In this document: positions 6,881 through 59,353 of the stretch, piece by piece
How the letters are laid out: each line of letters begins with the position of its first letter
Position numbering within the stretch: position 1 is the first letter of the stretch
From: Candidatus Omnitrophota bacterium
GTDB taxonomy: Bacteria > Omnitrophota > Gorgyraeia > Zapsychrales > JBDRMG01
Length of the DNA: 59,554 nt
Assembly: GCA_043812495.1 (NCBI GenBank)
Contig: JBDRMG010000043.1
Location: 1-59,554, forward strand
Reading direction: 5' to 3'
The notes under the pieces: model-generated
The model's input: only the letters and a program-made list of their open reading frames with translations
Databases searched by the model: none
Told to the model about the DNA's origin: nothing
Translations under genes and position numbers: made by a program

Positions 6881-6895
6881 AGCATTTCTCCTTTT

Positions 6896-25152: not shown

Positions 25153-25276
25153 TCATTTAAAAAGTTCTTTCTTATTTAGGGTCAATGAAAGAACCTGGGC
25201 CATTCAATCTTTTTCATCATCTATTTGTATTTCTTTAAATTATGAGATATTTATCAATCCCAATAAGAATGGCCCA
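25153..25276. repeat. Family C element, copy 2
   Basis: Colinear with 10634-10757; ends 1 nt before the receiver stop codon. Confidence 0.85.
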
Positions 25277-29611: not shown

Positions 29612-30808
29612 TTAAACTTTCTCGTAAGGATTAAAAAGTCTTTTGTGCTCATCTAAGGCAAATCGATCGGTCATGGATGCGATATAGTTGCAGATAATCT
29701 CATACTTTTCTTTTTTGTTATAGCGCCGGTCTCTTGCGTAAACCGAATACGGCAACTGATTGGGATTCTTTTTATACACGCCAAAAAGATCATCAATAAT
29801 TCTCTTGGCCTTTGATGTCATTCGTTCGACGCGATAGTGATGATAAAGTTTTTTCTCAACCAAAGCCTGCAGCTCCGTTCGCAGCCTGGCCATTTTTTCA
29901 CCGAAATTAATGATTTTTTCTTTGCATGTCTTAGCTTCATCAGCTGAACGGAAATCCTTTCGGCTTAATCGTTGACTGGAGGCCTCCATCAGGTCCTTCA
30001 CCTGCATATCAATCAATTCCTTAACGATTTGATACTTGAGCATATTTTTATCTGCCGAATGGATAAGACCTTTGATCCTTTCTAAGGCCTTCTTCCAGAG
30101 ATCATTATCCGTCAAATCCTGCTCGGTGATACATCCGGATGTTAGGCCGTCATCAATATCATGGTTCAAATAAGCCAAAGAATCGGCAATATCAACAACC
30201 CTGGCTTCCAAAGTCGGCTTATCGGCATCGTCTTCTTGAAAAGTGGGAATATCCGATTTTCTTTTAATATGATGATCATAGGGGGTGTCATGCTTCAGAA
30301 TGCCGATGCGCACCTCTTTGGTGAGATTCAACCCCGGAAAATTGGAATAACGTTTCTCGATTTTCGTCACAATCTCATAACTGCGAAAATTATGATTAAA
30401 ATCCAATTTCTGTGATTTCATCTTCTTATTGAGAATATCTTCGCCGGCATGCCCGAACGGCGCGTGACCTAAATCATGAGCCAGGGCGATCGCTTCAATC
30501 AGGTCCTCATTGAGCCTAAGATTCCGGCCGATGCTTCTTGCGATTTGCGCTACCTCAAGCGAATGCGTCAGCCGCGTGCGATAATAATCTCCTTCAAAAA
30601 TAACAAAGACCTGGGTTTTGTATTCCAACTTTCGAAAGGCCTCGCAATGGACAATCCGATCGCGATCCCGCTGAAAGCATGTGCGCGTGTCGTGCTGGGA
30701 CTCCTTGTAAAAGCGAAGTTGTGAATCTTTGCTTTTCATGGCATACGGAGCCAGCGTCTGAACTTCAAGTACTTCTATTTCTTCGCGTTTGCGTATTGTG
30801 TTAGACAT
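29612..30808 (-). CDS. dgt: Deoxyguanosinetriphosphate triphosphohydrolase (dGTPase)
   Basis: FQRDRDRIVH, RKLEYKTQV, RTRLTHSLEV, HDLGHAPFGHAGE; exact start uncertain (30808 or 30814). Confidence 0.93.
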   Translation of the reverse strand: MSNTIRKREEIEVLEVQTLAPYAMKSKDSQLRFYKESQHDTRTCFQRDRDRIVHCEAFRKLEYKTQVFVIFEGDYYRTRLTHSLEVAQIARSIGRNLRLNEDLIEAIALAHDLGHAPFGHAGEDILNKKMKSQKLDFNHNFRSYEIVTKIEKRYSNFPGLNLTKEVRIGILKHDTPYDHHIKRKSDIPTFQEDDADKPTLEARVVDIADSLAYLNHDIDDGLTSGCITEQDLTDNDLWKKALERIKGLIHSADKNMLKYQIVKELIDMQVKDLMEASSQRLSRKDFRSADEAKTCKEKIINFGEKMARLRTELQALVEKKLYHHYRVERMTSKAKRIIDDLFGVYKKNPNQLPYSVYARDRRYNKKEKYEIICNYIASMTDRFALDEHKRLFNPYEKV

Positions 30809-31266
30809 TTCCAAAGCTCATTAAGCGATTGAGAAATTACTTTTGTTTGGGCAATCACGGGCATAAAATTGATATCTCCGCTCCATCGCGGAACAATATG
30901 AATATGCAAATGGCCGGGAAAACCCGCGCCCGCCACACGCCCGAGATTCATGCCGATATTGTATCCCGCCGGTTGAATAGCCTTGTCGAGAAGCGCCTTG
31001 GTCTTTTCCGCTAAAGACAAAAGATCTAGTTTTTCGTCCCGGCTCAATTTGGCCAATTCCCCCACATGACGATTCGCCACAATAAGGACATGCCCGTTAT
31101 TATACGGATAAATATTGAGAACAGCAAAGGCATGTTGGCTTCGCAAAATAATATAATTTTTTTTATCCTGCTTCGAACGATGAATCCGGCAAAACACGCA
31201 ACCTTTTGTTTTCCGATTCAGCTTTTGAAGATAGGTTACACGCCAGGGCGCCCAGAGTTTATCCAT
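30775..31266 (-). CDS. HIT-family hydrolase (FHIT/Ap4A-like)
   Basis: LWAPWR, CVFC, NIYPYNNGH, HLHIHIVPRW. Confidence 0.95.
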   Translation of the reverse strand: MDKLWAPWRVTYLQKLNRKTKGCVFCRIHRSKQDKKNYIILRSQHAFAVLNIYPYNNGHVLIVANRHVGELAKLSRDEKLDLLSLAEKTKALLDKAIQPAGYNIGMNLGRVAGAGFPGHLHIHIVPRWSGDINFMPVIAQTKVISQSLNELWKCLTQYANAKK

Positions 31267-31747
31267 GATCTGTCCTCACTTTAACAATTTTGCCTTCGAT
31301 GTGATCGTTGATTTCCAGGATACCGTAAGATCGATAGGGCGCAAATATCATATCGTTGGGGCTGCCGGGATTGAAATACAATACACCGTCTATAACTTGG
31401 TTAAAAGGATGATGGGAATGTCCGAAGACAACGACATCCACATGTTCGTTTTTAAATTCTTTTTGCACTGTTTCAAGCAAGTTCTGCGGCGCTCCTTCAC
31501 CGTGAAATAAGCCGATAGAATGCTTCTCTAGTTTTACAATGTCCCGCCGGGGAATTGCGCGACGCACCGAAGATTCATCCATATTGCCATAAACGGCTTT
31601 AACATCTTTGATCTTCTTGAGTTCTGCTATGGAGCTTAGGGAACAAAGATCGCCAACGTGGAAAATGAGATCCACGGCGAGGAAATCGTCGAGCATTTGC
31701 TTCGGTAACGGTCGTGAATGCGTATCCGCCACAACGCCGATTTTCAT
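31259..31747 (-). CDS. YfcE-like metallophosphoesterase
   Basis: DTH, HVGD, GNMD, FHG, GHSH, NPGS. Confidence 0.93.
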   Translation of the reverse strand: MKIGVVADTHSRPLPKQMLDDFLAVDLIFHVGDLCSLSSIAELKKIKDVKAVYGNMDESSVRRAIPRRDIVKLEKHSIGLFHGEGAPQNLLETVQKEFKNEHVDVVVFGHSHHPFNQVIDGVLYFNPGSPNDMIFAPYRSYGILEINDHIEGKIVKVRTDHG

Positions 31748-31764
31748 TATTAGTCTTTCCTCTC

Positions 31765-31948
31765 AATAAGGCCTGCGCTTATGGAATGATAATGCCCGCT
31801 AATTTTCTCAGAATTAAGCGAGGTCTCGTCAATTCGATAGAATCGAATTGACGGAAACATAAGTGCATGGCCGAATTGACCTTGCCCACCAAAATTGTTA
31901 AACAATTTTGGTGTGGCGGGGATTAAGCAAATGCAACTATAATATTTC
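31765..31948. repeat. Family B modular repeat, copy 2
   Basis: Same scaffold as 6896-7070; same first-arm sub-hairpins, different second apical hairpin. Confidence 0.88.
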
Positions 31949-31977
31949 CTTTTGCCGCAAGGTGATTCACAGCGACG

Positions 31978-33618
31978 CTAACGTACAATGTAGGGTTTGT
32001 CGTAAAGACTCAAGAGCGTATTCAACTCGTTTTCGCTCCAAATCCACATTCTTTCCTGTAAGGCCCTCAGGCGAACATTGGCCTCGAGATCGCTCAAGGA
32101 AATAACGACGCGTTTCTGTTTCTTTTGGCTGGTTCTTTTGGATTCAGCTAAGAAGGCATCCATTTCATTCTCGAATAAAGAGCTCTCCTTTAAAATAATA
32201 AACCAGACGTCCTCGGTGGACTCCGCTTTAATGATATCAAAACTCTCATACGTATTTTTCTTTCGATTCATCGGATTAATCTCTCGGAAAAGAGGCAATT
32301 TGTATCTTCGTCCATTGATCGTAAAGGCTTCATTATCAAAGCAGTGCAAAAGCTCAATGATTCTCGCTGATAAGTCTCTTTCGGAAATCAGCGTGAAATC
32401 ATGGACAAGGCTTTCGAGCTCTTTTTGAAAAAGTTCTTTCTGCCGCTGTGTGGTTGAATCGATCATCGACATTCGTTTTTGGAATACATATTTGATCCAA
32501 TATTTAAGTAGCTTATCGACGTAATGATAATAATTGCCATTCTTATCAAGAATGCCCAAATCAATGAGTCGATTCAATTTTTGCGTGATAAATGTTTTCT
32601 TCAGATGCGTGGCGTCCACCAAGTCTTGCAACTTATTCTGGCCATGAGCCAAAGCCAAGAGGAGACGCGGGACGGCGGCGTTCGCCTTGGAAAAGCTCAA
32701 ATGATGCATCATGAGGTCAAAATGGCGGCTCAAGATCCCCCATCGACTGAAAATCGTATTTTCGATGGCCTGGGACAATAATGGCAAATAGACCTCACAT
32801 TGATTATGCAAAATACTCAGACGAATCAACTCCTGACAAAGCATATTGATGTAAAACGGATGACCGCCCGTAAAGTCAATCAGAAAGTTCTTCAAAAGAG
32901 GCTTGATGATAATATTGCGAAGATTATACTCAATAAATTCCTGAGACGTTTTGAGGTCAAAGGGGCCGACGTGGACAACTTCAAAGTGCCCGAATAAAAG
33001 CGATAAGCGTTCAGAAAGAATCTGCTGGGCCACATCCCCTAGAGAACTTGCAACCAAATACAGGCATTTTTTCTGGGTCATGATCTTTTTGCCCAGTTCG
33101 CCAAAAACATTGTTGATGCCAAGCTCCTCGAGATTATGAAACTCATCAAGGATAATCAGGCAGAATTTTCCTGATTCGTTGGCAAAAATCTCCGGTAGCG
33201 AAATCAAGTCGCGATACGCTTCGCTGATCCTTCCTTTCGTCAGGCTGGTTTGAATTTTCTTGATTTCTTCGACGGTCTGCGGAATGTGTTTCTTTGTACT
33301 CTCCAAAAGAAGATTCAAATCGTCATGCAGGGGCAGATTGATGCTCTTAGAGAGATGATACAGAATGCTGCCGGCAAATTTATGAAATACATAGTTTGCA
33401 TCTCTATGATCAAGGTCAAGGTAAAGGGGGATGACGGCATCGTCATCCAAATCAGATAAAAATTTGCGCAATAACGAGGTTTTTCCGATATACCGCGGCC
33501 CCAAGAAAGCGATATTCTGGCGATAACCGTCCTTAAGATCGATGACGCGTCTTTTGAGCAAATCGATTGTTGTCGTCCGGTCAAAAAAATTATTCTCACA
33601 ATCCATCATCAGACTCAT
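31978..33618 (-). CDS. Archaeal-type AAA+ ATPase with winged-helix and divergent C-terminal domain
   Basis: Walker A GPRYIGKT, Walker B IILDEF, TGGHPFY sensor, wHTH-like segment. Confidence 0.8.
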   Translation of the reverse strand: MSLMMDCENNFFDRTTTIDLLKRRVIDLKDGYRQNIAFLGPRYIGKTSLLRKFLSDLDDDAVIPLYLDLDHRDANYVFHKFAGSILYHLSKSINLPLHDDLNLLLESTKKHIPQTVEEIKKIQTSLTKGRISEAYRDLISLPEIFANESGKFCLIILDEFHNLEELGINNVFGELGKKIMTQKKCLYLVASSLGDVAQQILSERLSLLFGHFEVVHVGPFDLKTSQEFIEYNLRNIIIKPLLKNFLIDFTGGHPFYINMLCQELIRLSILHNQCEVYLPLLSQAIENTIFSRWGILSRHFDLMMHHLSFSKANAAVPRLLLALAHGQNKLQDLVDATHLKKTFITQKLNRLIDLGILDKNGNYYHYVDKLLKYWIKYVFQKRMSMIDSTTQRQKELFQKELESLVHDFTLISERDLSARIIELLHCFDNEAFTINGRRYKLPLFREINPMNRKKNTYESFDIIKAESTEDVWFIILKESSLFENEMDAFLAESKRTSQKKQKRVVISLSDLEANVRLRALQERMWIWSENELNTLLSLYDKPYIVR

Positions 33619-34277
33619 GGCAAATAATAGAGCGGGTTGTTCGCTTCGGCGTTTTTTCTAATTTCAAAATGTAAATATGCTAATCGGGTATTTTCTGCAA
33701 CGTTGGCGATAGGCGTCCCCTTGGCAACGGTATCGCCCACATTCGCCAAAAGGGTATTGTTCTGACCATAGACTGTAAAGTAACCGTCTAAGTGATCCAG
33801 GATTATGGTTTTGCCATAACCGCTTAAGCGATCAGCAAAGACGACCCGACCTCCTCGCGAGGCATAAACCGTTTCGCCGGCATCAACTTGAATATTGATT
33901 CCTTTATTAGCACCGCTTTTTGTCCACTGGCCAAAATAAGAAACAACCTTTCCTTTGAGGGGCCAACTGAATTCATCCGGTTTCAAACTATTCTCATCAA
34001 GAAGGACCTGCTGCGCACAGGCGGCCCCGGGGATGAAAATTAACTGACCCTTCTCAATTTGGGCCACATTAGGGATACGATTGGCTTTAATAATTTCATC
34101 CATGGTTACGCCGTAAGTTTGGGCAATACGCCAAATCGTCTCGCCGGCCTGGACGGTATGGTAAGAGCCTTCTTTGCGCGGGGAATGTTCGTACGAGGGA
34201 ACATACTCCGTTGTCGCACAACCCGCCATCAATAGCAAAAACAAGAAAAAGCTAATATATGAATGGTCCTTAAGCAT
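33615..34277 (-). CDS. LysM + M23 peptidase lipoprotein (NlpD-like)
   Basis: Lipobox MAGC, LysM domain, M23 with GINI, ILDH and LHFEIR; the first Zn ligand (HxxxD) appears degenerate. Confidence 0.9.
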   Translation of the reverse strand: MLKDHSYISFFLFLLLMAGCATTEYVPSYEHSPRKEGSYHTVQAGETIWRIAQTYGVTMDEIIKANRIPNVAQIEKGQLIFIPGAACAQQVLLDENSLKPDEFSWPLKGKVVSYFGQWTKSGANKGINIQVDAGETVYASRGGRVVFADRLSGYGKTIILDHLDGYFTVYGQNNTLLANVGDTVAKGTPIANVAENTRLAYLHFEIRKNAEANNPLYYLP

Positions 34278-34292
34278 TGAATAATTATCCTA

Positions 34293-34364
34293 AGCGAGGG
34301 ACGGGAGTTGAACCCGCGACGTCCAGCTTGGGAAGCTGACATTCTACCGCTGAATTACCCTCGC
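34293..34364 (-). tRNA. tRNA-Gly (CCC), CCA not encoded
   Basis: GCGAGGG acceptor stem, anticodon loop TT-CCC-AA, GGTTCAAC T-loop; full cloverleaf folds. Confidence 0.97.
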
Positions 34365-35011
34365 AATTTATTCTCGCAACTCTCAAGAGCTTTCTTAAAT
34401 TCGCGCACTGCACTGCCGGGGTTTTGCGCAAGACAAATATCCCGGCAAACAGCAATGCGTCGAACGCCGCGCACGCTAAGCTCATCCATAATCCGTCGAT
34501 TGATGCCTCCAATCGCAAAGACCGGAATGCGCATCTTTCTCTCAACAGCACTCAGCCATGACAAATCCATGGGTTTGCGCATCGGCTTGGTCAAAGTCTT
34601 AAATACGGAACCAAAACCAATATAGGAAGCCCCTTCGCGTTGTGCTTTAAACGCTTGCTTCAGAGACTGACAAGAAGCGCCGATGAGATATTTGCTTCCC
34701 AAAATATTTCTGGCTGCCTTAATAGAAATATCATCTTGCCCCAGGTGAACACCCGCTGCGTTAGTGGCCAAGGCCATATCAATTCTGTCGTTGATGATCA
34801 AGGGAATTCGGCCTTTGCATATTCTCAAAATTTTCTTAACGCAACCAATCATATCTTTGGCCGAACCTCTTTTATCTCGAAGCTGAATAATATCCACTCC
34901 GTTCTGAAGGGCTGTCTTGGCAATCTCAATAAGGCGATCGTACGCATGAACTTCTGCGTCCAGAATCAGATATAGATTACAATTTTTCGATAATTTTTTT
35001 TTCCAGGTCAT
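34355..35011 (-). CDS. thiE: Thiamine-phosphate synthase
   Basis: IIQLRDK, IINDR, GVHLGQDD, FKTLTK, FAIGGI. Confidence 0.93.
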   Translation of the reverse strand: MTWKKKLSKNCNLYLILDAEVHAYDRLIEIAKTALQNGVDIIQLRDKRGSAKDMIGCVKKILRICKGRIPLIINDRIDMALATNAAGVHLGQDDISIKAARNILGSKYLIGASCQSLKQAFKAQREGASYIGFGSVFKTLTKPMRKPMDLSWLSAVERKMRIPVFAIGGINRRIMDELSVRGVRRIAVCRDICLAQNPGSAVREFKKALESCENKLRG

Positions 35012-35399
35012 AAACCTTGTACCGTGACTTTTTAAAAATTGCGGTCTTTTTCGGGCAGATCATTTTTGAAAATTCTTCGAGGACCCGGATCGATTCTTTC
35101 ACTCTCTGGCTATTGGCAAGAAAAATATCTCGGATGCCATCGCGTTGCAATTCTGTCCGTGTCGATCGGCACCCCTGATCGCCTGAAATATCACGCGCCT
35201 GGAATAATTGTTCCTGATTCTTTAAAGAATCAAAGAGCGAGAAAGATAATTGATGGCGTATCTGTTTATAGGTCTTGGTCCATCGGGCGTGATTTAAGGC
35301 AAATCGTGTGATATCTTCACAGACCCGTAAGCCCTCTTTGGCGCGATTCAAGTTGGCGTCAATGACGCGATAAACTTTCTGGTGTGTTACTCTTTGCAC
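34977..35399 (-). CDS. Stand-alone ThiD2-like domain protein
   Basis: RVIDANLNRAKEGLRVCED...RVLEEFSK...RYKVYDLEK, as in the N-terminal domain of long ThiE proteins. Confidence 0.85.
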   Translation of the reverse strand: MQRVTHQKVYRVIDANLNRAKEGLRVCEDITRFALNHARWTKTYKQIRHQLSFSLFDSLKNQEQLFQARDISGDQGCRSTRTELQRDGIRDIFLANSQRVKESIRVLEEFSKMICPKKTAIFKKSRYKVYDLEKKIIEKL

Positions 35400-35875
35400 T
35401 TTGTCCGTATCAACCGAATGAGGTTGGTTGTCGAATACCCTTTGAGATATTTTATCAGCTCGACCTTGCCGTGCAAAGCGCGGACAATATCATTGCCGAT
35501 GACCTTTTTATTTTTCCAATCAGCGCCTTTGATCAGAACGTCGGGTTTGAGCGCTTGGACCAAACGGTAAGGATCCGCTTCATGAAAAATAACCACGTAA
35601 TCCACGCAAGATAAGGCCGCAAGAACACGCGCCCGATTATTCTGAGAATTGATCGGTCGCTTGTGTCCTTTTATTTTCTTGACGGATGCGTCACTATTGA
35701 GCCCAACAACAAGAATCCTGTTGAGTTTCTTTGATTTTTCCAAATAATCAATATGGCCAACATGCAAAAGGTCAAAACAGCCATTGGTAAAAGCAATTGT
35801 CCGGCCGCGTTTCTTCCATGCGGGGAGAATGCGCTTGAGCGTTTTGACATTCACAATTTTACGATGTGTATTCAC
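35387..35875 (-). CDS. rfaE2: D-glycero-beta-D-manno-heptose 1-phosphate adenylyltransferase
   Basis: FTNGCFDLLHVGH, VGLNSDASV, LIKGADW, STTNLI. Confidence 0.93.
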   Translation of the reverse strand: MNTHRKIVNVKTLKRILPAWKKRGRTIAFTNGCFDLLHVGHIDYLEKSKKLNRILVVGLNSDASVKKIKGHKRPINSQNNRARVLAALSCVDYVVIFHEADPYRLVQALKPDVLIKGADWKNKKVIGNDIVRALHGKVELIKYLKGYSTTNLIRLIRTKCKE

Positions 35876-36447
35876 TTTTTATAGAAATGGTTTTCGACTA
35901 GCTCGCAAAGAGAATGAATGACGCAGGCATGGGTTTCCTGAATCCTGGCTGTTTTATGCGAAGGAACGACGAGGCAGATGTCGCAAATCTTTGCTAAACG
36001 ACCTCCGTCGCATCCTGTCAAGGCAACCGTCTTAAGGCCCATGCGTTTGGCTTGCCGAACTCCTTCGATGACATTTTTTGAATGACCGCTCGTTGAGATG
36101 GCAAAGGCCATATCGCCTTTCGCAGCGAGACCGGCAATTTGCCTGGCGAACACCGTATCGAATCCATAATCATTTCCCAAGGCAGTCAGGGTGGATGTAT
36201 CAGTCGTCAGGGCGATAGCCGCGAGAGGTTTTCGTTCTTTTTCAAACCGTCCGATCAGCTCAGCCGCCATGTGCTGACAATCCGATGCGGATCCTCCATT
36301 ACCAAAAAGGACGATTTTCTTTTTTCGTCCTAATGCCCTAATCATTTCCTTAGCCATTTTGACAATAGTGTCTGCGCTAGCTTTCAGAGTCTCTTCTTTG
36401 ATTTGAATCGATTCTTGGAAACGTTGCTTAATGATTTGCTTCATCAT
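35872..36447 (-). CDS. gmhA: D-sedoheptulose-7-phosphate isomerase
   Basis: GNGGSASDCQHMAAE, NDYG, STSG, IQETH. Confidence 0.96.
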   Translation of the reverse strand: MMKQIIKQRFQESIQIKEETLKASADTIVKMAKEMIRALGRKKKIVLFGNGGSASDCQHMAAELIGRFEKERKPLAAIALTTDTSTLTALGNDYGFDTVFARQIAGLAAKGDMAFAISTSGHSKNVIEGVRQAKRMGLKTVALTGCDGGRLAKICDICLVVPSHKTARIQETHACVIHSLCELVENHFYKK

Positions 36448-36467
36448 GGGTCCTATCCATCCCTTTC

Positions 36468-36598
36468 AATGAGACCATGACTTATGGACGTCCCGTAAAA
36501 AGCGGGGCTAACATAAGTCATAAGGCCGAATTGACCCCGAGCTCACCATTGATTCAGTGGCTAGCGAGGGGATTAAGCAAATTAAATTATAATATTTC
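36468..36598. repeat. Family B modular repeat, copy 3 (minimal form)
   Basis: ATGACTTATG/CATAAGTCAT stem, GAATTGACCCC...GGGGATTAAGCAAAT. Confidence 0.85.
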
Positions 36599-36601
36599 CT
36601 T

Positions 36602-37639
36602 TTATTCTGCGAAAAAGACTTTCGCAATCTCATATAGATCCATATTAACGGTCTTACGCGTTTCGATCGCTTTAGAAATATCAATAAATCGTATGCGGTT
36701 GTTGTGCAAACTCACCATTTTCCCGAACTTGTTGTCTCTCACCAATTCCACAGCCTTGACACCAAAACGTGTGGCGATCACGCGGTCGAAAGCGCTGGGT
36801 GATCCTCCTCGCTGGATATGCCCCAGAACACTCACGCGCGTTTCATAATTTGTTTCCCGAGAAATGATGCGCGCAAGGATTTCTCCGATACCGCCAAAAC
36901 GACGATGCCCAAATTCATCTAATTCTTCTTTGATTTTCGCCTCATTCTCTTGACCCTGTATTTCTACGCCTTCGGAAACAACGACAATGCTGAATGTTTT
37001 TCCTCTCTTATGTCGACTTCTTAAGGCCTCGCATATTTCTTTAACATTCACTGGGATTTCCGGAATCAAAATCATATCGGCTCCGCCGGCGATTCCCGAC
37101 TCCAGGGCAATCCATCCGGTATATCGGCCCATGACCTCAATGACAATAATACGGTGATGGCTTTCGGCCGTTGTGTGAAGGCGATCAATGCATTCGGTGG
37201 CTACGTTCACCGCTGTATCAAAACCAAACGCGTAATCGGTACCGTTGAGCGCGTTATCAATGGATTTCGGAACGCCCACGACGCGAATAACACCTTTTTG
37301 ATGAAGGGTATAGGCCACACGAAAGGTATCTTCCCCTCCGACCACAATTAAGGCATCAATGCCGCTGCGCTTATAGTTTTCTTTGATTTTCTTTATATGC
37401 TCCGGATTGTGCAGTGGATTGATACGGCTTGTCCCGAGAATGGTTCCGCCCCGATCAAGAATTCCGGACGTCGCCTTGAGATCCAGAATTCTCATATCAT
37501 TTTCAATCAGACCTTCCCATCCGTTCTTGATTCCCGTAACGACGTAGCCTTCTTGAAGGCTTTTGCGAACGACGGCACGAATGACGGAATTCAATCCCGG
37601 GCAATCGGCCCCACCAGTCAAAATCCCAATCTTTTTCAT
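36602..37639 (-). CDS. pfkA: 6-phosphofructokinase
   Basis: TGGADCPGLN, GGTILGTSR, PKSIDN, EVMGR, LGHIQRGG. Confidence 0.95.
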   Translation of the reverse strand: MKKIGILTGGADCPGLNSVIRAVVRKSLQEGYVVTGIKNGWEGLIENDMRILDLKATSGILDRGGTILGTSRINPLHNPEHIKKIKENYKRSGIDALIVVGGEDTFRVAYTLHQKGVIRVVGVPKSIDNALNGTDYAFGFDTAVNVATECIDRLHTTAESHHRIIVIEVMGRYTGWIALESGIAGGADMILIPEIPVNVKEICEALRSRHKRGKTFSIVVVSEGVEIQGQENEAKIKEELDEFGHRRFGGIGEILARIISRETNYETRVSVLGHIQRGGSPSAFDRVIATRFGVKAVELVRDNKFGKMVSLHNNRIRFIDISKAIETRKTVNMDLYEIAKVFFAE

Positions 37640-37654
37640 TTGATTGACCTCTTT

Positions 37655-38263
37655 TTAACTTCTATACCCCTGAAATGGGACCGCGGTCTCAGACTCTTGA
37701 TCCTTATCCTGCCGAGGGCCTTTGGATTTGGATTGATCAGAAATCATTTTGATAATATGAAGACGAACCGTCACGGTCTCGTCGAGCCCTAAAATCTCCT
37801 GAATCTTATTCTTAATCGTGTCTTGCAATTTAGATGTCATTTCGGGGATATTGACATCGGCCCGCAGAACCAGTTTGGCCTCAATGCTGACGCCCTTTTT
37901 GCCTGCCACAATCGTTGGCTTGACGTCTTTCACTTCCGGATTTTTGTAAAGCATCCTCTTGACCAAGTCTTCAACGGCGACAAGAGACACACTCACGCGC
38001 CCCGAGGGATTATCAAAAGCAATCGTTCTTTCTTTTTGTTGGTTCCCTGAAATAATACGGGCTAAAATGAAGCTAAAAATAATCAATCCGCAACTTGTGA
38101 TCGTCACGGCCATATTGACCGTTGGATCATTATGAACGATTCTAAGATAATAGCTTACATCATTGAGCGTAATGACATCGGTCGCGAAGAGAATCACGGC
38201 ACCGCTTAAGACAGAAATGATGAGAACATAAAATGATATGGCCAAACGAGTAAAAAATTTCAT
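37655..38263 (-). CDS. amaP: AmaP-like alkaline-shock membrane anchor protein
   Basis: Two TM helices, G-x-V-x-VS...AVEDLV, adjacent to an Asp23 gene. Confidence 0.7.
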   Translation of the reverse strand: MKFFTRLAISFYVLIISVLSGAVILFATDVITLNDVSYYLRIVHNDPTVNMAVTITSCGLIIFSFILARIISGNQQKERTIAFDNPSGRVSVSLVAVEDLVKRMLYKNPEVKDVKPTIVAGKKGVSIEAKLVLRADVNIPEMTSKLQDTIKNKIQEILGLDETVTVRLHIIKMISDQSKSKGPRQDKDQESETAVPFQGYRS

Positions 38264-38616
38264 GACTTCCCCCTCTCGATACCTTGGATATTCACATGGA
38301 TATCTTTCAGATTTATTTCGGCAATCTTCTCAACCCGCGTTCGAATCGCGTCCTGAACCTGTCGCGCGATATCCGGAATATTGATGCCATAATGCACTAA
38401 GATCTTCACTTCGATCATAACTTCTCCTTCCGGATCAATATGCACACTAATCCCCGGATAGCTTGTTTTCCCGCAAAAATCCATCACGCGAGTCATGAGA
38501 TCCCCGGGAATCAAGCTCACGCCTTCGATTTCATGAATCGTCGAATAAGCAATATCGGCCAAAACCTTCTTGTGAATTTGAATAGACCCAAAATCAATTT
38601 TGTTTTCTTCGGTCAC
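38260..38616 (-). CDS. Asp23/Gls24-family protein
   Basis: GSIQIHKKVLADIA...YGINIPDIARQVQ...IHVNIQGI. Confidence 0.9.
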   Translation of the reverse strand: MTEENKIDFGSIQIHKKVLADIAYSTIHEIEGVSLIPGDLMTRVMDFCGKTSYPGISVHIDPEGEVMIEVKILVHYGINIPDIARQVQDAIRTRVEKIAEINLKDIHVNIQGIERGKS

Positions 38617-38619
38617 GAG

Positions 38620-39975
38620 TTATCCCTCCCCTTCGATTTTTGCAATCTTTTCTAAGAAATGCGTAGATACGGTTCCTTTCGTAAATATCGGATTATTCAG
38701 AATTTTAATATGCAAAGGAATAGTCGTTTTAATGGGGCTGATATAAAATTCTTCTAAAGCGCGGATCATGGTTCTGATCGCCTCTTCACGATTTCGTCCA
38801 TAAGTAATCAATTTGGCCACCATCGAATCATAAAACGGGCTGATGACATATCCCGGATAAATATGCGTATCCACGCGGACTCCGAAACCGCCGGGAAGAT
38901 TAAGCTGTTCGATTTTTCCCGGGCAGGGCAGAAAATTGTTATCAGGATCTTCCGCATTGACGCGGCATTCGATGGCCGCTCCTTTGATTTTGACATCCGC
39001 CTGTTTAATCTTCAATTTCTCACCGGCGGCGATACGCATCTGTTCCTTAACAATATCCACGCCCGTGACCATTTCTGTCACAGGATGCTCGACCTGAATG
39101 CGCGTATTCATCTCCATAAAATAAAAAGATCCGTTGTTGTCCAGCAGAAATTCAATGGTCCCTGCGCCGGTATAGCTGACGGCCTTCGCCGCCTTGATGG
39201 CTGCATCCCCCATTTTCTTTCTTAATTTGGAATCGAGCACCGGACAAGGCGCTTCTTCGAGAATTTTCTGATGCCGTCTCTGAATGCTGCAATCCCGCTC
39301 ACCCAAATGAATCGTATGACCGCGTTGATCAGCCAAAATTTGGAATTCGACATGACGCGGGTCCGCAATATACTTTTCCATATATACGTTGGGATTTCCA
39401 AACGCAGCTTCTGCTTCATTCTGGGCCATCGTAAAAGAACTCACCAGACTGACATCATTATGGCAAACTCTCATTCCTTTGCCCCCGCCGCCGGCGGCAG
39501 CTTTAATGATCACGGGATATTTTATTTTTTTCGCTAACCGTAACGCTTCTTCCTTGGTTTTGATCACATCATTGGCGCCGGGAGTCACGGGAACGCCAAC
39601 CTTGCGCATGGTTTCCCTGGCCTTAACCTTATCGCCCATTAATTGCATCGCAAGCGGTGTCGGCCCAATGAATGTGATATTGCATGATTCGCAGATCTCC
39701 GCAAAATGGGAATTCTCCGCAAGAAAACCATAACCCGGATGAATGGCCTCAACGTCAGTAATCTCTGCCGCTGAAATGATGGCCGGAATATTAAGATAAC
39801 TATCCCGGCTAGGGGCATTGCCGATACATACGGCTTCATCGGCAAACCGCACATGGAGGGAATCGCGATCCGCTTCGGAAAATACGGCGACAGTGCGAAT
39901 ATTGAGTTCTTTACACGCGCGAATGATTCTTAAGGCGATTTCGCCTCTATTGGCAATGAGGATTTTTGAGAACAT
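38620..39975 (-). CDS. accC: Acetyl-CoA carboxylase biotin carboxylase subunit
   Basis: [36 protein letters not shown]. Confidence 0.98.
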
Positions 39976-39978
39976 ACT

Positions 39979-40440
39979 CTAGACCGGCTCAACAACAAAA
40001 AGCGTTTGGCCGAATTCAACGGGTTCGGCATTCTCGACCGCCACTTCAGTGATCTTGCCTCTGATCTCTGACTTGATTTCATTCATCAGTTTCATGGCCT
40101 CGACAATGCATACCACCTGGCCGATTTCCACAATTTGACCGACTTCGACAAAGGGTGCTGCTTCCGGCGAAGGAGCGCGATAAAATGTTCCGACCATGGG
40201 AGAAACAATTTCTTTAAGGTTTTTTATGGTTTGGGTTTCCGGCGCTTGGGGCGCAGCGGGCCCGATTGGTAAGCTCGATTCCACTTGATATTGCGCTGAG
40301 GCACTTGACATCGGTTGACCCATAGGCTGTCCAAAGGATTTCTTGATTCTGAATTTTGTTCCCTCTCGTTCGACTTCGATTTCCGAAAGGCCATGCTCGT
40401 TCATCAGATTAATAATTTCTTTGATCTCTTTTAAATTCAT
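39979..40440 (-). CDS. accB: Biotin carboxyl carrier protein
   Basis: SPMVGTFY, EAMKLMNE. Confidence 0.98.
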   Translation of the reverse strand: MNLKEIKEIINLMNEHGLSEIEVEREGTKFRIKKSFGQPMGQPMSSASAQYQVESSLPIGPAAPQAPETQTIKNLKEIVSPMVGTFYRAPSPEAAPFVEVGQIVEIGQVVCIVEAMKLMNEIKSEIRGKITEVAVENAEPVEFGQTLFVVEPV

Positions 40441-41003
40441 TTCTGCACCCTTTCGACATACTGGCCGGTTCGCGTATCAATTTTGATCCAATCCCCCTGA
40501 TTAATAAAAAGAGGAACCTGCGCAATGGCCCCGGCGTCGATCTTGGCCGGCTTGGTCCCCGCTTTAGACGTATCACCCTTAAATCCCGGTTCTGTTTCCA
40601 CGATTTGCGCAATGATAAAATTGGGTAATGTGACTTTCTGGAGTTTGTGCTCACAAAAAATCGCTGTGACATCCGCGTTTTCCTGGAGATAGGAAATCAC
40701 GTCTCCTAGCTGATTGCGCGAAAGCACGGATTCCTCAAAGGTATGCTGGTCCATAAAATGAAAGATATCCTGGCTGCGATATAAATATTGGAGTGTTTTC
40801 TGCTCGAGAAAAACATCTTCGAGCTTCTCGGAGCTCTTATAGGTCCGCTCGATAGTGAGATCTGATTTAAAATTTTTAAGTTTGACGCGGACAAAGGCCG
40901 CACCTTTGCCCGGCTTGACGTGATGGTATTCCGTGACGATATAGATATCGTTATTGAGGCGAAGGCCCAACCCGGAGGTAATTTGATTAATGGATATTGT
41001 CAC
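40437..41003 (-). CDS. efp: Elongation factor P
   Basis: HVKPGKGAAFVR, GFKGDT, VPLFI, DTRTG. Confidence 0.98.
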   Translation of the reverse strand: MTISINQITSGLGLRLNNDIYIVTEYHHVKPGKGAAFVRVKLKNFKSDLTIERTYKSSEKLEDVFLEQKTLQYLYRSQDIFHFMDQHTFEESVLSRNQLGDVISYLQENADVTAIFCEHKLQKVTLPNFIIAQIVETEPGFKGDTSKAGTKPAKIDAGAIAQVPLFINQGDWIKIDTRTGQYVERVQK

Positions 41004-42039
41004 TTAGAACCTTATATCCTTTTTTTGTTACAAGAACCATGTCCTCATAACGAATGCCGAACCGTCCGGGGATATAAACCCCTGGTTCAACAGTAAAGAC
41101 CATCCCTTCTTCAAGGATGGATGAGCTTTTCGACGAAATGGCCGGGCTCTCATGAACCTCGAGACCCACGCCATGGCCAAGTGAATGGCTAAAATACTTA
41201 GCTAACTTATATTTTCGTAAATACTTACGGGCTTTAAAATCGATGTCCTTGACCGCAATCCCCGGTCGGATTTCTTGAATCGCTTCCCGTTGTGCAGCAC
41301 GAACGTAAGTATATGTTTTCTGTATAAGTTGCGGTATTTTACCCAAAAAAAACATGCGTGTCAAGTCGGATTTGTAGCCTTGATAGTCTATGCCCATATC
41401 AATCAGTACGGGCTCGCCTTCTTGAAGCTTTCGGTCTGTGATTTTGGCATGAGGATAACAGGAATGGGGGCCGAAGGCAATGATGGGATGAAAAGAAAAC
41501 TTAACATTTTGCGCTTTCACAAAGCGCTCCAGATGGTCTAGAATTTGGCACTCTTTTATGCCAGCTTTGATATAGCGTTTAATGAACTCAAAGGCCTTTA
41601 GATTGATAGCAATGGCCTTTTGAATTTGTCGAATCTCTTCCGGGCTCTTGATCTGACGAAGTCGCCCCACGAGATGATTTTTCATCATCCATCGGACTCC
41701 TTTAGGCGTACAGCCTTTGAGACGCTTGAGATCATACGCCGAGAGATGCCGTCCGTCAAAGCAGACGCTTTGGATATGATTTTTTCTGATTAATTCCTTA
41801 AGAGCATCACCGATGGATTGGGTATAGCATTTGACTTGAATTCCTCCCAAATGCTTCTTGGCCTCGAGCACATAACGTGCATCCGTAATGTATACGGCTT
41901 CTTGAGACATAACCCACAACCAGGAATCCGCAGAGGGATAACGAGTCAAATACGTTATGTCGCTATCGTGTGGGATCAGAAAAGCTCTGTGAGCGTCCTT
42001 GCGATAAAACTGGATGAGTTTTTTGAGTCGAGAATTCAC
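40987..42039 (-). CDS. Xaa-Pro aminopeptidase (M24)
   Basis: DMG...SDLTR, HSLGHGVGLEVHE, TVEPG, GIRYED. Confidence 0.95.
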   Translation of the reverse strand: MNSRLKKLIQFYRKDAHRAFLIPHDSDITYLTRYPSADSWLWVMSQEAVYITDARYVLEAKKHLGGIQVKCYTQSIGDALKELIRKNHIQSVCFDGRHLSAYDLKRLKGCTPKGVRWMMKNHLVGRLRQIKSPEEIRQIQKAIAINLKAFEFIKRYIKAGIKECQILDHLERFVKAQNVKFSFHPIIAFGPHSCYPHAKITDRKLQEGEPVLIDMGIDYQGYKSDLTRMFFLGKIPQLIQKTYTYVRAAQREAIQEIRPGIAVKDIDFKARKYLRKYKLAKYFSHSLGHGVGLEVHESPAISSKSSSILEEGMVFTVEPGVYIPGRFGIRYEDMVLVTKKGYKVLSDNIH

Positions 42040-42076
42040 GGTATTAGCTGAATCAGGTTAGCGTCCTGTACAAATG

Positions 42077-42517
42077 TTATTTGCCCAGAAGGGTGGCTAA
42101 AGCCTCAAGTCCCAAAAGATAACTTTGAACTCCAAAGCCGCTGATCTGACCGGAACTAACAGGGGCGATCAAAGACGTGTGTCGGAATTCCTCCCGAGCG
42201 TAGATATTCGAAAGATGAACTTCCACAGTCGGCAATTGGACGGCCGCCAAGGCGTCGTGAATCGCAACGCTTGTGTGCGTGTAGGCCGCGGGATTGATCA
42301 AGATTCCTTGAATTTTATTCTTCTTGGCTTGACCAATCGTATCCACAATTTCTCCCTCATGATTGGATTGAAAGATGACCAACGTCATGCGGTGTTTCTG
42401 GACTTGTTTCTTAAGCTGACCATTAATAGCCGCGAGGGTTTGCTTTCCGTAGATTTTTGTTTCTCTTTTACCTAACAGATCCAAATTGGGTCCATGAATC
42501 ACAAGTATCTTTTTCAA
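42077..42517 (-). CDS. aroQ: Type II 3-dehydroquinate dehydratase
   Basis: [32 protein letters not shown]. Confidence 0.97.
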
Positions 42518-42531
42518 TGTAAGCCTCCTTC

Positions 42532-42879
42532 AATGAGCGCATCACTTACGGAACGAGCGGAACGTGAGTGACGTAAGTGATATTCGCGAATTGAATCCCC
42601 ACACCAATTTGACGGCATGGGAATATTTTTAATTAATGGTTTAGACACAATGAGACCGTTTTCTTCGAACTTAGCGTTTCATGTCAAATTGGTGTGGGGG
42701 TCTAAGTCTGCCTCAAACTTACGTCTTTCACTAGCGCTCAATCCGTAAGTTTTTTCCTCCTAAGACCTTCTTTAATGAGCCCACCTTTGAATCAATGGCG
42801 GGCTCATTGACCCCGCCTTTTTGGCGGATCTTCACAAATTATTATTTTCCTCGCCTCGCCAAAAGGGCGGGACGCCGTC
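42532..42879. repeat. Cluster of at least five hairpins including family B copy 4 and family D copy 2
   Basis: ATCACTTACG/CGTAAGTGAT; CCCCACACCAATTTGAC/GTCAAATTGGTGTGGGG; AAACTTACG/CGTAAGTTT; AATGAGCCC/GGGCTCATT; CCCGCCTTTTTGGCG/CGCCAAAAGGGCGGG. Confidence 0.88.
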
Positions 42880-42891
42880 GACCTTCCCAAT

Positions 42892-43047
42892 TCATTGCTC
42901 CGCCTCATCGACGAGCATGATGGGAATCCCGTCTTTGATAGGATATTTTCGCCCGCATTGGACGCAGACAATTTTTTTCTCCTCAAGCTTCACATCACTC
43001 TTGCATGCGGGACAGGCCAAAATCTTCAGTAATTCGTTATCGATCAT
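42892..43047 (-). CDS. Trm112-like small protein (not in ORF track)
   Basis: Hand translation MIDNELLKILACPACKSDVKLEEKKIVCVQCGRKYPIKDGIPIMLVDEAEQ. Confidence 0.93.
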   Translation of the reverse strand: MIDNELLKILACPACKSDVKLEEKKIVCVQCGRKYPIKDGIPIMLVDEAEQ

Positions 43048-43442
43048 TTGGACCCCTCTTGATTCAAGACATCGACATATTTCATTTGAAGCTCATACAA
43101 CAGTTGACCAAGCGCAACGTCTTCCTGATGATTAAGATTTCCCTTGGTCTTGTCTTTAAGCATGGAGAGCGTATCGATCAGGAGCTTGGCCTGCTGCAAA
43201 TTTTTTTCGACCTTGTTATCCAGGGGATTGGGAATTTCACCCAAGAACACCATGGCTTGATAGGCCAGGCTCGTCATATAACTCAAGAAATTAATTTCTA
43301 AAGAATCGTCCCCGGGAATATGTTCCTCAGTCTGCTTTGTCTCGGAAGATGCTTGTGTCTCTTGCTTGGGTGCGGATTCTGTGTCTTTTTGCTTGGCCAT
43401 AGATTCCTTCCAGCCTTCATCCACGTATTTTTCGTCTCCCAT
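43044..43442 (-). CDS. DUF1844-like protein
   Basis: LAYQAMVFLGEIPNP...AKLLIDTLSMLKDKTKGNL...LQMKYV. Confidence 0.85.
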   Translation of the reverse strand: MGDEKYVDEGWKESMAKQKDTESAPKQETQASSETKQTEEHIPGDDSLEINFLSYMTSLAYQAMVFLGEIPNPLDNKVEKNLQQAKLLIDTLSMLKDKTKGNLNHQEDVALGQLLYELQMKYVDVLNQEGSK

Positions 43443-43451
43443 AAAGACCTC

Positions 43452-44369
43452 CTAAGTAATTCGAATTCCCGCATAACCGACAACGGATCGAGTGTCGCCT
43501 GTTGTATCCCCGCTTGTTTGATAACGGATTAAATCGGCTTGCATGGCCCCGAGCCCCTTGACAATCTCAAGCAAAATAAAGACAGCAACGACGCCGCACA
43601 TGCTCACATGGAGGCGTTCGACGCGCTCGAGCATATTATCTGAATCAAGTCTCAAAATCGACTCGATCACATGCTGATCTTTTTTATAAGCGTCTTCCTG
43701 CGGTTCGTAGTGCGTCATATCCGAGCTGGCAACGATCGTAACATCGCTAGTGCATTGCAATTCTTTAATAACATCTAGGATGTCTTTAGCGATATCTTTA
43801 TAAATTTTCTTATTGTTGGCCTGGGAAACGACGATAGGAACTATCCGGATATCCTTTTGGGCCATTTGTAAAAAAGGCAGCAACACCTCGATGCAATGTT
43901 CCCCATCATGCGCCAGATGATCCGCCTTTAAATATTTAGATTTTTCCACAAGACACGAAGCGATCTCTGTGTCTACAGGAACATCCCCCAAGGGTGTGCG
44001 CCAGGACCCTTGGGTTCTCACGCTAAAAAGCTCTCCAGCGCCGGTATGGTTGGGACCCAAAATAATAAGTCTATTTCTTAACTCGCAGGAGTTCACGGTT
44101 TGAGCGGCCACAAAACCGGAATAGTCATAACCGGCATGAGGCAGGATAACTCCTTTAGCCAATTTTCTGTCCTGGGGGGGTTCCTTTTTTCCAAATGACA
44201 AAATCGTTTCTTTTAACTTCCTGGATTCCCCTGGGTAAAAATATCCCGCAACAACAGCCTCACGCATTATATCCTTCAATCCTTTTTTAGTCATTAATCT
44301 TTCGGGCCAGAATTCATTCTTTACGGCTTCGCGTACGGATAGAATATCATCGATTAAAAACTCTGTCAA
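43452..44369 (-). CDS. MEMO1-family (AmmeMemoRadiSam protein B)
   Basis: REAVVAGYFYP, PHAGYDYSG, GPNH, EHCIEV, SSDMTHY; start may be ATG 44267. Confidence 0.93.
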   Translation of the reverse strand: MTEFLIDDILSVREAVKNEFWPERLMTKKGLKDIMREAVVAGYFYPGESRKLKETILSFGKKEPPQDRKLAKGVILPHAGYDYSGFVAAQTVNSCELRNRLIILGPNHTGAGELFSVRTQGSWRTPLGDVPVDTEIASCLVEKSKYLKADHLAHDGEHCIEVLLPFLQMAQKDIRIVPIVVSQANNKKIYKDIAKDILDVIKELQCTSDVTIVASSDMTHYEPQEDAYKKDQHVIESILRLDSDNMLERVERLHVSMCGVVAVFILLEIVKGLGAMQADLIRYQTSGDTTGDTRSVVGYAGIRIT

Positions 44370-48647: not shown

Positions 48648-48765
48648 TTATTCTACTTCGCATAACCAATGGAAACGATAGTATATGCTTCGTAGAATAT
48701 TCTCTTCAGAATAATTCTCCGAAGCCTGTACCATTATATTCCTTTAGTAAGGCGAAGGAGAATAA
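48648..48765. repeat. Family A MITE-like repeat, copy 2 (without inserts)
   Basis: Same terminal inverted repeats and backbone as 3063-3229. Confidence 0.85.
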
Positions 48766-49418
48766 ATCATTTCCATATTGAAAATTTTAGAAAAACCGCG
48801 GATCATTTCTTTCTTGACCAAAGCACACTCCGTGGGTTGTCCGCACAAAGAATGCATGGTGGTCATGGCTGTATCCAGACCGCACGGCTTGATCATTGAA
48901 AAATAGTTTAGGTCGGTATTGACGTTGAGGGCCAATCCGTGAAACGTCACCCACTGGCGAACGCCGATACCGATCGAAGCGATCTTGCCTTTTGGGGTAA
49001 AGACACCTCGTTGTCCGTTCCTGCGGAAAGCGACAATCGCAAAGGACAATAACGCGTCCATGACCACCTGCTCCAATTTTTCCATATATTCCTTAAGGTC
49101 CTTACGCCATAACTTTAAAGGAAAGATCGGATAGATAACCATCTGACCCGGACCATGAAAAGTAACCTCTCCTCCCCGATTCGTGCGGATAATATCTATT
49201 TTGTTCTTCATGATTTTCTCTTGAGGCCGCAAGAAATTTTTCTCTGAAGCCAGTCGCCCCAAAGTAAAAACTGGCGGGTGCTCGCAAAAAAGCAATTGCG
49301 GTTGTTCCTCTCGGACAACATCCCCAAGAATCTTGAGCTGATGACCATAGGCCTCTGGGTAAGAAATAAGACCGAAGTCCATGACCCGACACTTGATCGC
49401 AGTAGCAACATTCATCAT
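48744..49418 (-). CDS. lipB: Octanoyltransferase
   Basis: EHPPVFTLGR, RGGEVTFHGPGQ, KIASIG, HGLALN, PCG. Confidence 0.96.
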   Translation of the reverse strand: MMNVATAIKCRVMDFGLISYPEAYGHQLKILGDVVREEQPQLLFCEHPPVFTLGRLASEKNFLRPQEKIMKNKIDIIRTNRGGEVTFHGPGQMVIYPIFPLKLWRKDLKEYMEKLEQVVMDALLSFAIVAFRRNGQRGVFTPKGKIASIGIGVRQWVTFHGLALNVNTDLNYFSMIKPCGLDTAMTTMHSLCGQPTECALVKKEMIRGFSKIFNMEMIYSPSPY

Positions 49419-49453
49419 GTAGAGTTATTTTATCAGAAAATCGCAAAAATAAA

Positions 49454-49660
49454 AAAAGGTTCTTTCTTGTTTAGGGTGAATGAAAGAACCTGATTCCAGA
49501 GATTATTAAGTGATTAAACAGATTTGGTTTCCGGCGATATCAATAAATCTGTGTAATCAATTTTATAATCATTGTCATCAGGGCCATTCAATGATTTTTG
49601 CTATCTAATCTTGTTACAATAGATTATGAATATTCCTTCATCCTGAATAAGAATGGCCCA
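49454..49660. repeat. Family C element, copy 3, with an 89-bp hairpin insert
   Basis: Both family C inverted repeats present, separated by the extra segment 49492-49580. Confidence 0.8.
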
Positions 49661-59350: not shown

Positions 59351-59353
59351 GAT

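Follow-up and report, generated by a model that had tools for sequence, protein, structure and literature searches.

The stretch of DNA analysed here (the window, 59,554 nucleotides) is contig C43 of a 66-contig Omnitrophota assembly of 1.94 Mb and 44.5% G+C (genome G000); the placement of the host in this phylum is supported by the database names of gmhA homologues. On the minus strand, positions 31948-31748 lie directly upstream of a gene for a YfcE-like protein, and they hold a single copy of a modular DNA repeat, palindromic in design and amplified in the genome, an abundant hairpin repeat of Omnitrophota that has apparently not been described before. The copy is composed of four parts:

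31918-31948, minus: L arm, GAAATATTATAGTTGCATTTGCTTAATCCCC, starting 29 nt past the TAG stop of the upstream gene (31980-31978)
31884-31917, minus: hairpin H1, GCCACACCAAAATTGTTTAACAATTTTGGTGGGC, a perfect hairpin whose helix is present in the predicted minimum-free-energy fold
31763-31879, minus: footed hairpin H2, with TCAAT/ATTGA as its outer helix, an internal loop of TC:TT and, at the apex, two nested hairpins
31755-31764, minus: purine tail and Shine-Dalgarno (SD) sequence, GAGAGGAAAG, sharing the last two bases of the foot

The same order of L arm, H1, H2 and purine tail defines the unit, which is polar, with the L arm at one end and the tail at the other, and spans 118-208 nt in most copies. 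The L arm is A+T-rich, with the consensus (TAAG/GTT)GAAATATTATAATTGTATTTGCTTAATCCCC and stop codons in two frames. H1 is a G+C hairpin that is interchangeable between copies, and H2 is variable in sequence above a foot that stays constant, T(C/T)AAT-TC-stem...stem-TC-ATT(G/A)A. The tail is an 8-nt purine tract, GAAAGGAG, which reads RAAAAGA where it is unused. In the copy upstream of the YfcE-like gene, the H2 stem (GGCCATGCACTTATG.../...CCATAAGCGCAGGCC) begins GGCC, and the two-by-two pyrimidine internal loop is TC:TT, as opposed to TC:TC in most copies. Its predicted fold has a free energy of -72.3 kcal/mol (z = -6.1). The closing CTTATT ends at 31765 and the ATG start of the YfcE-like gene occupies 31747-31745, a distance of 17 nt.

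Profile searches of the whole genome (nhmmer for the L arm) recovered 91 L arms, 95 feet with their 5′ stem, and 78 right ends, with all three parts present in 49 copies (complete L, H1, and foot). Because the H2 stems diverge widely, we used a structural census that required three outer pairs, the TC:TC loop, four inner pairs, and a stable duplex; a looser census for ATTC-stem-TCAT returned mostly false positives and was replaced by this search for outer and inner helices around the TC:TC loop. After filtering, 123 hairpins were left, 116 of which have a called gene on both sides. The foot types above the background of other pairings are CAATTC..TCATTG (53), TAATTC..TCATTA (39), AAATTC..TCATTT (23), and CCATTC..TCATGG (4). 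The fourth outer foot pair covaries (C-G, U-A, A-U), with mismatched combinations being rare. In an alignment of 36 different copies, 97% of cells are paired and 14 of 17 pairs vary on both sides, compared to at most 45% of cells paired in controls whose partners were slid by one to three columns. Seven of these 17 pairs (three outer and four inner) are imposed by the census and uninformative, while the other ten are not imposed. Structural constraint on the hairpin is evident from two features: stems whose covariation is fully compensatory, and a constant foot that keeps an invariant TC:TC loop. A covariance model built from the hairpin alignment (R1) scored only 62 candidates in this genome. 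Scanning the window with Rfam 15 at the gathering score returned the tRNA at 34293-34364 as the sole match, with no repeat copy matched.

Placement relative to gene starts and stops

Genes were called with a simple caller of our own, whose individual starts may be off by a few codons, yielding 1604 genes and a coding density of 90% for the whole genome. Neighboring gene pairs are co-directional in 1407 of 1538 cases (91%), and the median spacer between co-directional genes is 29 nt. A preliminary description of the window, made from its letters alone, had stated that every two-stem copy shares one orientation and ends at a ribosome-binding site. The four complete window copies indeed all lie on the minus strand, end in CT(C/T)ATT followed by a purine tract, and precede a start by 15, 17, 20, and 14 nt. 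The word "every" holds for these four but not genome-wide, where 25 of the 49 complete copies sit 0-25 nt before a co-oriented start.

The comparison with random intergenic positions that the same description had proposed was run genome-wide and gives a strong enrichment. The distance from CATT to the start is 10-24 nt for 43 of the 116 footed hairpins (41 co-oriented and 2 in divergent spacers), versus the 3.7% expected if intergenic position and orientation are random (p = 2e-31). A more generous null, in which each repeat-free spacer is equally likely to be hit, no insertion falls within 12 nt of a start (protecting the stretch from SD to start), and orientation is randomised, raises the expectation to 16.6% against the 37% observed (p = 1e-7). 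Copies between co-directional genes are co-oriented in 68 cases and inverted in 38 (p = 0.005); divergent and convergent spacers hold 4 and 6 others. The 10-24 nt range includes 41 of the 68 co-oriented copies, with a sharp peak at 14-15 nt, and 2 of the 4 in divergent spacers, and the start lies at 3-6 nt in two or three more co-oriented copies. Copies with a CAAT...ATTG foot are start-adjacent in 33 of 53 cases (62%, p = 1e-13 under the generous null), those with TAAT...ATTA in 10 of 37 (p = 0.075, same null), and those with AAAT...ATTT in 0 of 20, so the placement effect stems from the CAATTC...TCATTG foot subfamily. The bias is real and strongly non-random, yet it is true of about half the copies, and orientation is biased rather than fixed.

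We regard it as very improbable that these copies bear no special relationship to starts and lie near them by chance, as any intergenic repeat in a compact genome would. Short co-directional spacers and a largely one-way gene order would favor such coincidence, and the TAATTC...TCATTA subfamily on its own would fit it under the generous null. The excess over that same null, the behavior of the CAATTC...TCATTG copies, the sharply peaked offset, and the recurrence of the pattern in four other genomes (see below) all argue against it. The absence of any orientation or distance bias, which the preliminary description had named as the outcome that would overturn its claim, is not what the genome-wide split and the peaked distances display.

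The opposite end of the unit is related to stop codons. In roughly 25 of the 43 start-adjacent copies, the L arm opens 0-10 nt past the upstream stop or holds that stop itself; a stop codon lies inside L in six cases, supplied by the TGA in TTGAAAT or the TAA in TATAAT. Inverted copies place their CTCATT end at the 3′ end of the facing gene (gap of -27 to +25 nt in about 17 of 38), the stop of which is often a TGA or TAA that CTCATT(G/A)A contributes on its complementary strand. Hairpins also adjoin tRNAs with no gap (0 nt) in three cases, tRNA-Pro at its 5′ end in two and tRNA-Met at its 3′ end in one. Hairpins flush with tRNA ends are likewise seen in G001, which represents the sister genus and is the one further genome from the host's family.

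Well-supported starts only 3 nt past the foot (CTCATTGAA-ATG, no SD) occur at a hisC-like gene (C29:19245), at C10:33650, and on C22 (minus, near 38536), the latter two with open reading frames (ORFs) of 425 aa and 347 aa. The N-terminus of the hisC-like product lines up with Bacillus HisC from its first residue. Two short, very basic ORFs at C10:48166-48222 and C10:27890-27973 (MSKGRDKPKKEKKKQKKR, MGKRQRRGKLRWRSKRARHGKSPTKGH), missed by the caller, stand at the canonical distance behind tails with perfect SDs.

The purine tract and the repeated unit

A strong SD (GGAGG or AGGAG) precedes 63% of element-adjacent genes versus 18% of other genes, and an SD-like motif is lacking in 2% versus 35%; both comparisons are indicative, as the caller uses the SD as a criterion. 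The 43 start-adjacent copies read GAAAGGAG after CATT, whereas the 53 copies with no start behind them still read R-A-A-A-a-G-A. G occupies +6 in 35 of these 53, and the two groups differ at +5 (G in 27 of 43 versus 11 of 53) and at +8 (24 of 43 versus 11 of 53). Within the 26 closest copy pairs (88-100% identity), homology opens where L starts, ~70 nt ahead of the foot, and stops +2 to +14 after CATT, with a mode of +8. No target-site duplication (TSD) is detectable, and left and right junctions do not co-vary in 31 complete copies. Because the tract is present even where no start follows, because homology extends to about +8, and because the junctions do not co-vary, the tract belongs to the unit. 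That the purine tract is part of the repeated unit is our main new result. On the simplest reading, the unit carries a proto-SD, retained or sharpened in copies that make use of it and drifting from G to A in those that do not. The AAAGGA at the left junction of the copy upstream of gmhA was considered as a duplicate of the tail and rejected, as the junctions do not co-vary and the "TAAGG" variant of L is also found in inverted copies.

The preliminary description had offered, as one of two options, a mobile element whose target motif overlaps SD sequences, such that the purines after CTCATT would be host target rather than repeat. We consider insertion at SD-like sequence improbable. The tract does match the host SD consensus and is weaker where no gene follows, and relatives that lack the element between a pfkA-like gene and gmhA have an SD right after the stop (for example TGAAAAAGGAC and TAAGGGGGAG), which resembles the left junction TAAAAGGA in G000. 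However, RAAAAGA also stands behind copies that face gene 3′ ends or long non-coding stretches, where no SD is expected, and near-identical copies remain homologous through the tract. The independent junctions leave no sign of duplication, and the occurrence of the "TAAGG" variant in inverted copies marks it as part of the element and not an old SD. The element thus seems to bring an SD rather than to land beside one.

One more observation would favor a targeted element: an IS200/IS605-like element here inserts into the foot after TCAA, and sequence-directed insertion therefore operates in this genome. The element and a gene-less derivative sit in feet of the family, after GGGGTCAA. At C64:1-720, L, H1, and GGGTCAA run directly into the left end of the element, followed by its Y1 transposase ORF (142 aa, one in-frame TAG); at C18:18974-19272, a copy is interrupted between GGGGTCAA and TTCGGTCATGCAC by the derivative, which is ~115 nt long and has 94% identical ends. 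Another element thus uses the foot as its target, which sheds no light on the family's own movement.

The genome holds seven matches to Y1 transposases (PF01797) and 16 to GIY-YIG nucleases (PF01541), about 14 of the latter being small stand-alone ORFs of 82-139 aa in 1.9 Mb. A link to REP-associated tyrosine transposases (RAYTs) was rejected, as the Y1 homologs carry other flanking repeats. Three ~330-aa proteins with an N-terminal Y1 domain (C2:46102-47079, C45:203-1198, and C4:1223-2215) have repeats of their own, GGGGTCAGGTCTCGAC... or GGGACGTTGATGATAGTATTACA..., unrelated to this family, and may be RAYT-like genes of other repeat families. The start of the window lies inside another Y1 transposase gene (2-88, minus). 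A link to GIY-YIG was set aside as well, since none of the 16 matches is embedded in a hairpin of the family; the small GIY-YIG ORFs often lie beside tRNA genes, flanked by other hairpin repeats (C50:16323-16547, C38:12543-12758, and C29:12986-13186). Neither end of the unit, GAAATATTATAAT... or ...CTCATTGAAAGGAG, is an inverted copy of the other.

Distribution among genomes and persistence of copies

In a sample of 81 genomes from the phylum, R1 finds matches in 48, copy numbers ranging from 0 to 61 over the sample, the 61 belonging to this genome, where only 62 candidates were scored. Counts are patchy even within genera (0, 14, 0, 0, and 2 in one genus), and G001 has 11 matches versus ~120 copies here. 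Among the 40 top matches in four other genomes, 34 have a start (frame of at least 30 codons) within 30 nt, usually in the form CTCATTRAR-GGAG-N5-8-ATG, and in G099 a start follows in 12 of 12 matches. As the pattern recurs in other genomes, it is a property of the repeat family and not of the window.

Individual sites turn over. The inspection of empty orthologous sites suggested in the preliminary description was carried out at the junction of the pfkA-like gene and gmhA, where all 11 relatives examined lack the element; nine have spacers of 3-38 nt, and that of G001 reads TAA-ATA-ATG. The site upstream of yebC is filled in both G000 and G001 by copies that agree in foot and H1 type and differ in their H2 stems, and an element upstream of yebC is present in none of 27 other genomes of the phylum. 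The tRNA-Pro site is also common to G000 and G001, again with differing stem sequences. Upstream of groES, G001 has a promoter, the CIRCE operator, a footed hairpin, AAAAGGAGG, and ATG, whereas G000 has a plain 27-nt spacer between CIRCE and SD with no hairpin. The G001 arrangement shows a hairpin that would be transcribed within the 5′ untranslated region (UTR) of an essential operon and tolerated there. The sigma-70-like promoter and CIRCE precede groES in both genera (locus L031, G001:C2:125400-125640; G000, C3:33790-33900), and the last CIRCE bases in G001 overlap the start of the footed hairpin (GAGTGC-CAATTCAATTC). The widely differing copy number, the patchy distribution, and the lineage-specific sites support the mobile-element option of the preliminary description as regards repeat behavior; the SD as its target is improbable for the reasons given above.

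The downstream genes are functionally unrelated (MazG-like, YfcE-like, gmhA, aroQ, yebC, hisC-like, and others). Given this, and since the sites are not conserved beyond the family, a gene-specific cis-regulatory leader (riboswitch, thermometer, or attenuator) was rejected. A role for the L arm as promoter and H1 as intrinsic terminator was also set aside: L contains the palindrome ATTATAAT, which resembles a -10 box, but in positions 30000-44000, around three copies, promoter-like sites number 22 versus 22.4 expected by shuffling, with a usable -35 only at the gmhA copy, and terminator-like sites are no more frequent than in shuffled sequence either.

We lean, with slightly better than even confidence, toward an amplifying palindromic repeat of the type of repetitive extragenic palindromes (REPs) and bacterial interspersed mosaic elements (BIMEs), which carries its own stop codons and SD and survives in tight spacers with its tail as the downstream SD. 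An insertion in a short spacer would survive only where it leaves the upstream gene with an end and the downstream SD correctly spaced, and the repeat could supply both signals, stop codons in L and an SD in the tail. As both would be supplied, copies would persist in the gaps of a compact, one-strand genome, filling the interval from stop codon to SD, with the tail then acting as SD for the gene that follows; oppositely oriented copies would persist flush against stop codons. We infer that the tail is used as an SD and that placement arises by survival filtering rather than targeting. The RBS-like end of the repeat itself is probably the reason that about half of the copies sit flush against the next start.

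Several observations weigh against this account. At a number of genes, a well-supported start lies 1-6 nt past the foot with no SD, which a repeat that supplies an SD leaves unexplained, and SD-less starts right after the foot are also found in G077 and G088. A purely passive repeat needs none of the structural constraint evident in foot and stems. The distances from CATT to start depend on our own gene caller. The search of the genome tied no transposase, terminal inverted repeat (TIR), or TSD to the family, and mobility is deduced from distribution only. No exact pre-insertion site was seen, and there is no near-identical genome: the closest gmhA homolog among 5.8 billion proteins is 67% identical, and exact-protein look-ups for the YfcE-like and gmhA proteins found no match elsewhere.

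Part of this evidence points instead to an exapted RNA module for intercistronic punctuation or insulation, akin to the cis-acting translational or RNA-processing module that the preliminary description gave as its other option, a possibility to which we give about one chance in four. Here, once transcribed within long one-strand operons, the hairpin on its foot would either undergo endoribonuclease cleavage or lock up the upstream RNA, the next cistron would open with a free SD or a near-leaderless AUG, and the repeat would be kept because it sets translation or mRNA ends. The constant geometry of foot, SD, and start at 13-16 nt is consistent with such a role, as are stems that covary fully around an invariant TC:TC loop and a predicted fold of the gmhA copy that leaves the tail outside both hairpins. 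SD-less starts just past the foot, in this and other genomes, fit the RNA module better than the repeat with its own SD. The hairpins flush with tRNA ends in both genera, the G001 groES hairpin between CIRCE and SD, and the yebC and tRNA-Pro sites that G000 and G001 share despite differing stems could be read in the same way. On the other hand, 36% of copies between co-directional genes are inverted, copy number ranges from none to 61 across the phylum with a tenfold difference within one family, sites are not conserved beyond the family, and no Rfam family matches. Selection on mRNA should lead co-oriented copies to favor G-U pairs on the element strand, and inverted copies to favor them on its complement; in this weak test, no preference for the transcribed strand appears, the asymmetry being alike in co-oriented (41 versus 64) and inverted (15 versus 27) copies (Fisher p = 0.85). 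A more specific version, in which the foot hairpin is the cis-element of a phylum-wide operon punctuation and a dedicated or housekeeping endoribonuclease reads the AAU-UC / UC-AUU foot and cuts on its 3′ side, strikes us as unlikely, somewhat more so than punctuation in general. If it were true, each downstream cistron would become an mRNA that opens with its SD, or nearly leaderless in the SD-less copies, and, next to a tRNA gene, the foot would show where the tRNA ends. This would make the repeat a "cistron starter", mobile and self-spreading, on which Omnitrophota with very long one-strand arrays would have come to depend. Should the RNA-processing reading hold, operon punctuation in an uncultivated phylum would be directly testable with a metatranscriptome.

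Known repeat systems and other copies in the window

In form, the family is closest to REP/BIME mosaics, with which it shares short G+C-rich palindromes in many intergenic copies, mosaics with other motifs, variable hairpins standing on a conserved motif, compensatory stem changes, and patchy copy number between relatives (PMC3733652, PMC3184786). REP/BIME elements are gammaproteobacterial, and their REPIN forms are mobilised by RAYT transposases (PMC3733652, PMC3184786); REP palindromes bear a GTAG or CGTC tetranucleotide at the 5′ foot (PMC3733652). The Omnitrophota foot, T(C/T)AAT-TC...TC-ATT(G/A)A with invariant AATTC...TCATT, has no such tag. None of the seven PF01797 matches is a RAYT flanked by family hairpins, and the IS200-like ORF on C64 has L and H1 upstream as its insertion target. 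REPs cluster after gene 3′ ends, while members of this family terminate at the next gene's SD and themselves carry an SD-like tract, in a unit that is longer and polar.

The Correia elements (CREE) of Neisseria are likewise abundant small intergenic repeats that are co-transcribed with their neighbors and bring expression signals (PMC2649163). They can create promoters, bind integration host factor (IHF), and be cut by RNase III, and they have 26-bp TIRs and a TA duplication (PMC2649163). The present family has no TIR or TSD and no enriched promoter consensus, and CREE supplies promoters rather than an SD. The terminal inverted repeats and target duplications of MITEs (miniature inverted-repeat transposable elements) do not occur in it either (PMC2649163, PMC10969869), and ribosome-binding sites go unmentioned in a 2024 MITE review. 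BOX elements of Streptococcus pneumoniae (boxA-boxB-boxC) are similarly modular, with variable internal modules and stable stem-loops near genes; they are reported to change downstream expression in an orientation-dependent manner, and the ORFs they carry have no good SD sequences (PMC3049150). BOX shares no sequence similarity with the family and is not reported to end at or provide ribosome-binding sites.

Palindrome-associated transposable elements (PATEs) derive from IS200/IS605 and insert as single strands 3′ of a short target. They resemble the family in form only, having no TIR or TSD, hairpins near both ends, polarity, and a biased orientation in a mostly one-way genome; here, no cognate TnpA is linked, and the IS200-like copies have other end hairpins and target the family's foot. 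Processing hairpins for RNase III lie between the early genes of phage T7, and tRNAs punctuate transcripts in the mitochondrial tRNA-punctuation model. Both recall the present arrangement, a stable internal-loop hairpin just upstream of the next cistron's SD in what would be a long polycistronic transcript, with some copies abutting tRNA ends. The Omnitrophota copies differ in being interspersed repeats in both orientations and not fixed sites. No paper on Omnitrophota that also deals with repetitive extragenic or palindromic repeats turned up in our literature search.

Interspersed palindromic repeats are usually seen as junk, terminators, or mRNA stabilisers after genes. Here, one unit holds the signals for both gene boundaries, stops at one end and an SD at the other, and fills the intergenic gap exactly. 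This would be a new way of life for selfish DNA in a compact genome and a natural "portable intercistronic junction" of the kind that synthetic biologists construct themselves. In genome annotation, start-codon and RBS models of Omnitrophota would be skewed by ~40 genes per genome that share one repeat-borne SD, and gene callers will extend ORFs into the repeat, as our own caller did in 13 cases.

The other copies in the window are as follows:

7040-7070, minus: L arm of the copy upstream of the MazG-like gene, a diverged variant, GAAATAGCATCATCGTATTTGCTTCATCCCC
6894-7043, minus: H1 (7043-7011) and H2 (7010-6894) of the same copy, in repeat families D2 and D5
6888-6895, minus: its tail and SD, AAAAGGAG
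36568-36598, minus: L arm of the gmhA copy, directly after the TAA stop of the pfkA-like gene (36604-36602), AAGGAAATATT
36466-36567, minus: H1 (36567-36538) and H2 (36534-36466) of the gmhA copy, TCAATTC...CTCATTGA
36460-36467, minus: its tail and SD, GAAAGGGA
42530-42700, minus: long-loop H1 (42700-42597) and H2 (42594-42530) of the copy upstream of aroQ
42524-42531, minus: its tail and SD, GAAGGAGG
59354-59419, plus: partial copy, L arm, H1, and GAGGTCAAT, inverted relative to secY

In the MazG-like copy, H1 is a perfect 13-bp stem and H2 belongs to the TTAATTC...CTCATTAA foot subfamily; CTCATT ends at 6896, 15 nt before the TTG start at 6880-6878 (minus). The gmhA copy scores 68 bits with R1, and its CTCATT ends at 36468, 20 nt before the ATG at 36447-36445 (minus). 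The aroQ copy has no L arm and is preceded by further hairpin modules as far upstream as 42879; its H1 is a 17-bp stem, CCCCACACCAATTTGAC, with a loop of ~70 nt, and CTCATT ends at 42532, 14 nt before the TTG at 42517-42515 (minus). One hairpin in this region, 42775-42807 (minus), reads TCAATGAG-CCCGCC...GGTGGG-CTCATTAA, such that the 5′ foot fully complements the 3′ foot (AATGAG/CTCATT), a version of the foot without the TC:TC loop.

The partial copy is broken off after TCAAT by unrelated sequence; from 59411 to the end of the window at 59554, following L, H1, and GGTCAAT, this sequence is 99% identical to C8:1-144. The secY ATG (59350-59348, minus) lies 3 nt from the L end of the inverted partial copy and has no SD. 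The junction at 59348-59354 (minus) reads …TAATAATATTTC-ATC-ATG, with in-frame stops just upstream, and several more genes that follow inverted L arms have no SD either. The window contains two more repeat families, unrelated to this one, the first at 3063-3230 and 48648-48766 (D3/D4) and the second at 10638-10757, 25156-25276, and 49451-49660 (D6/D7).

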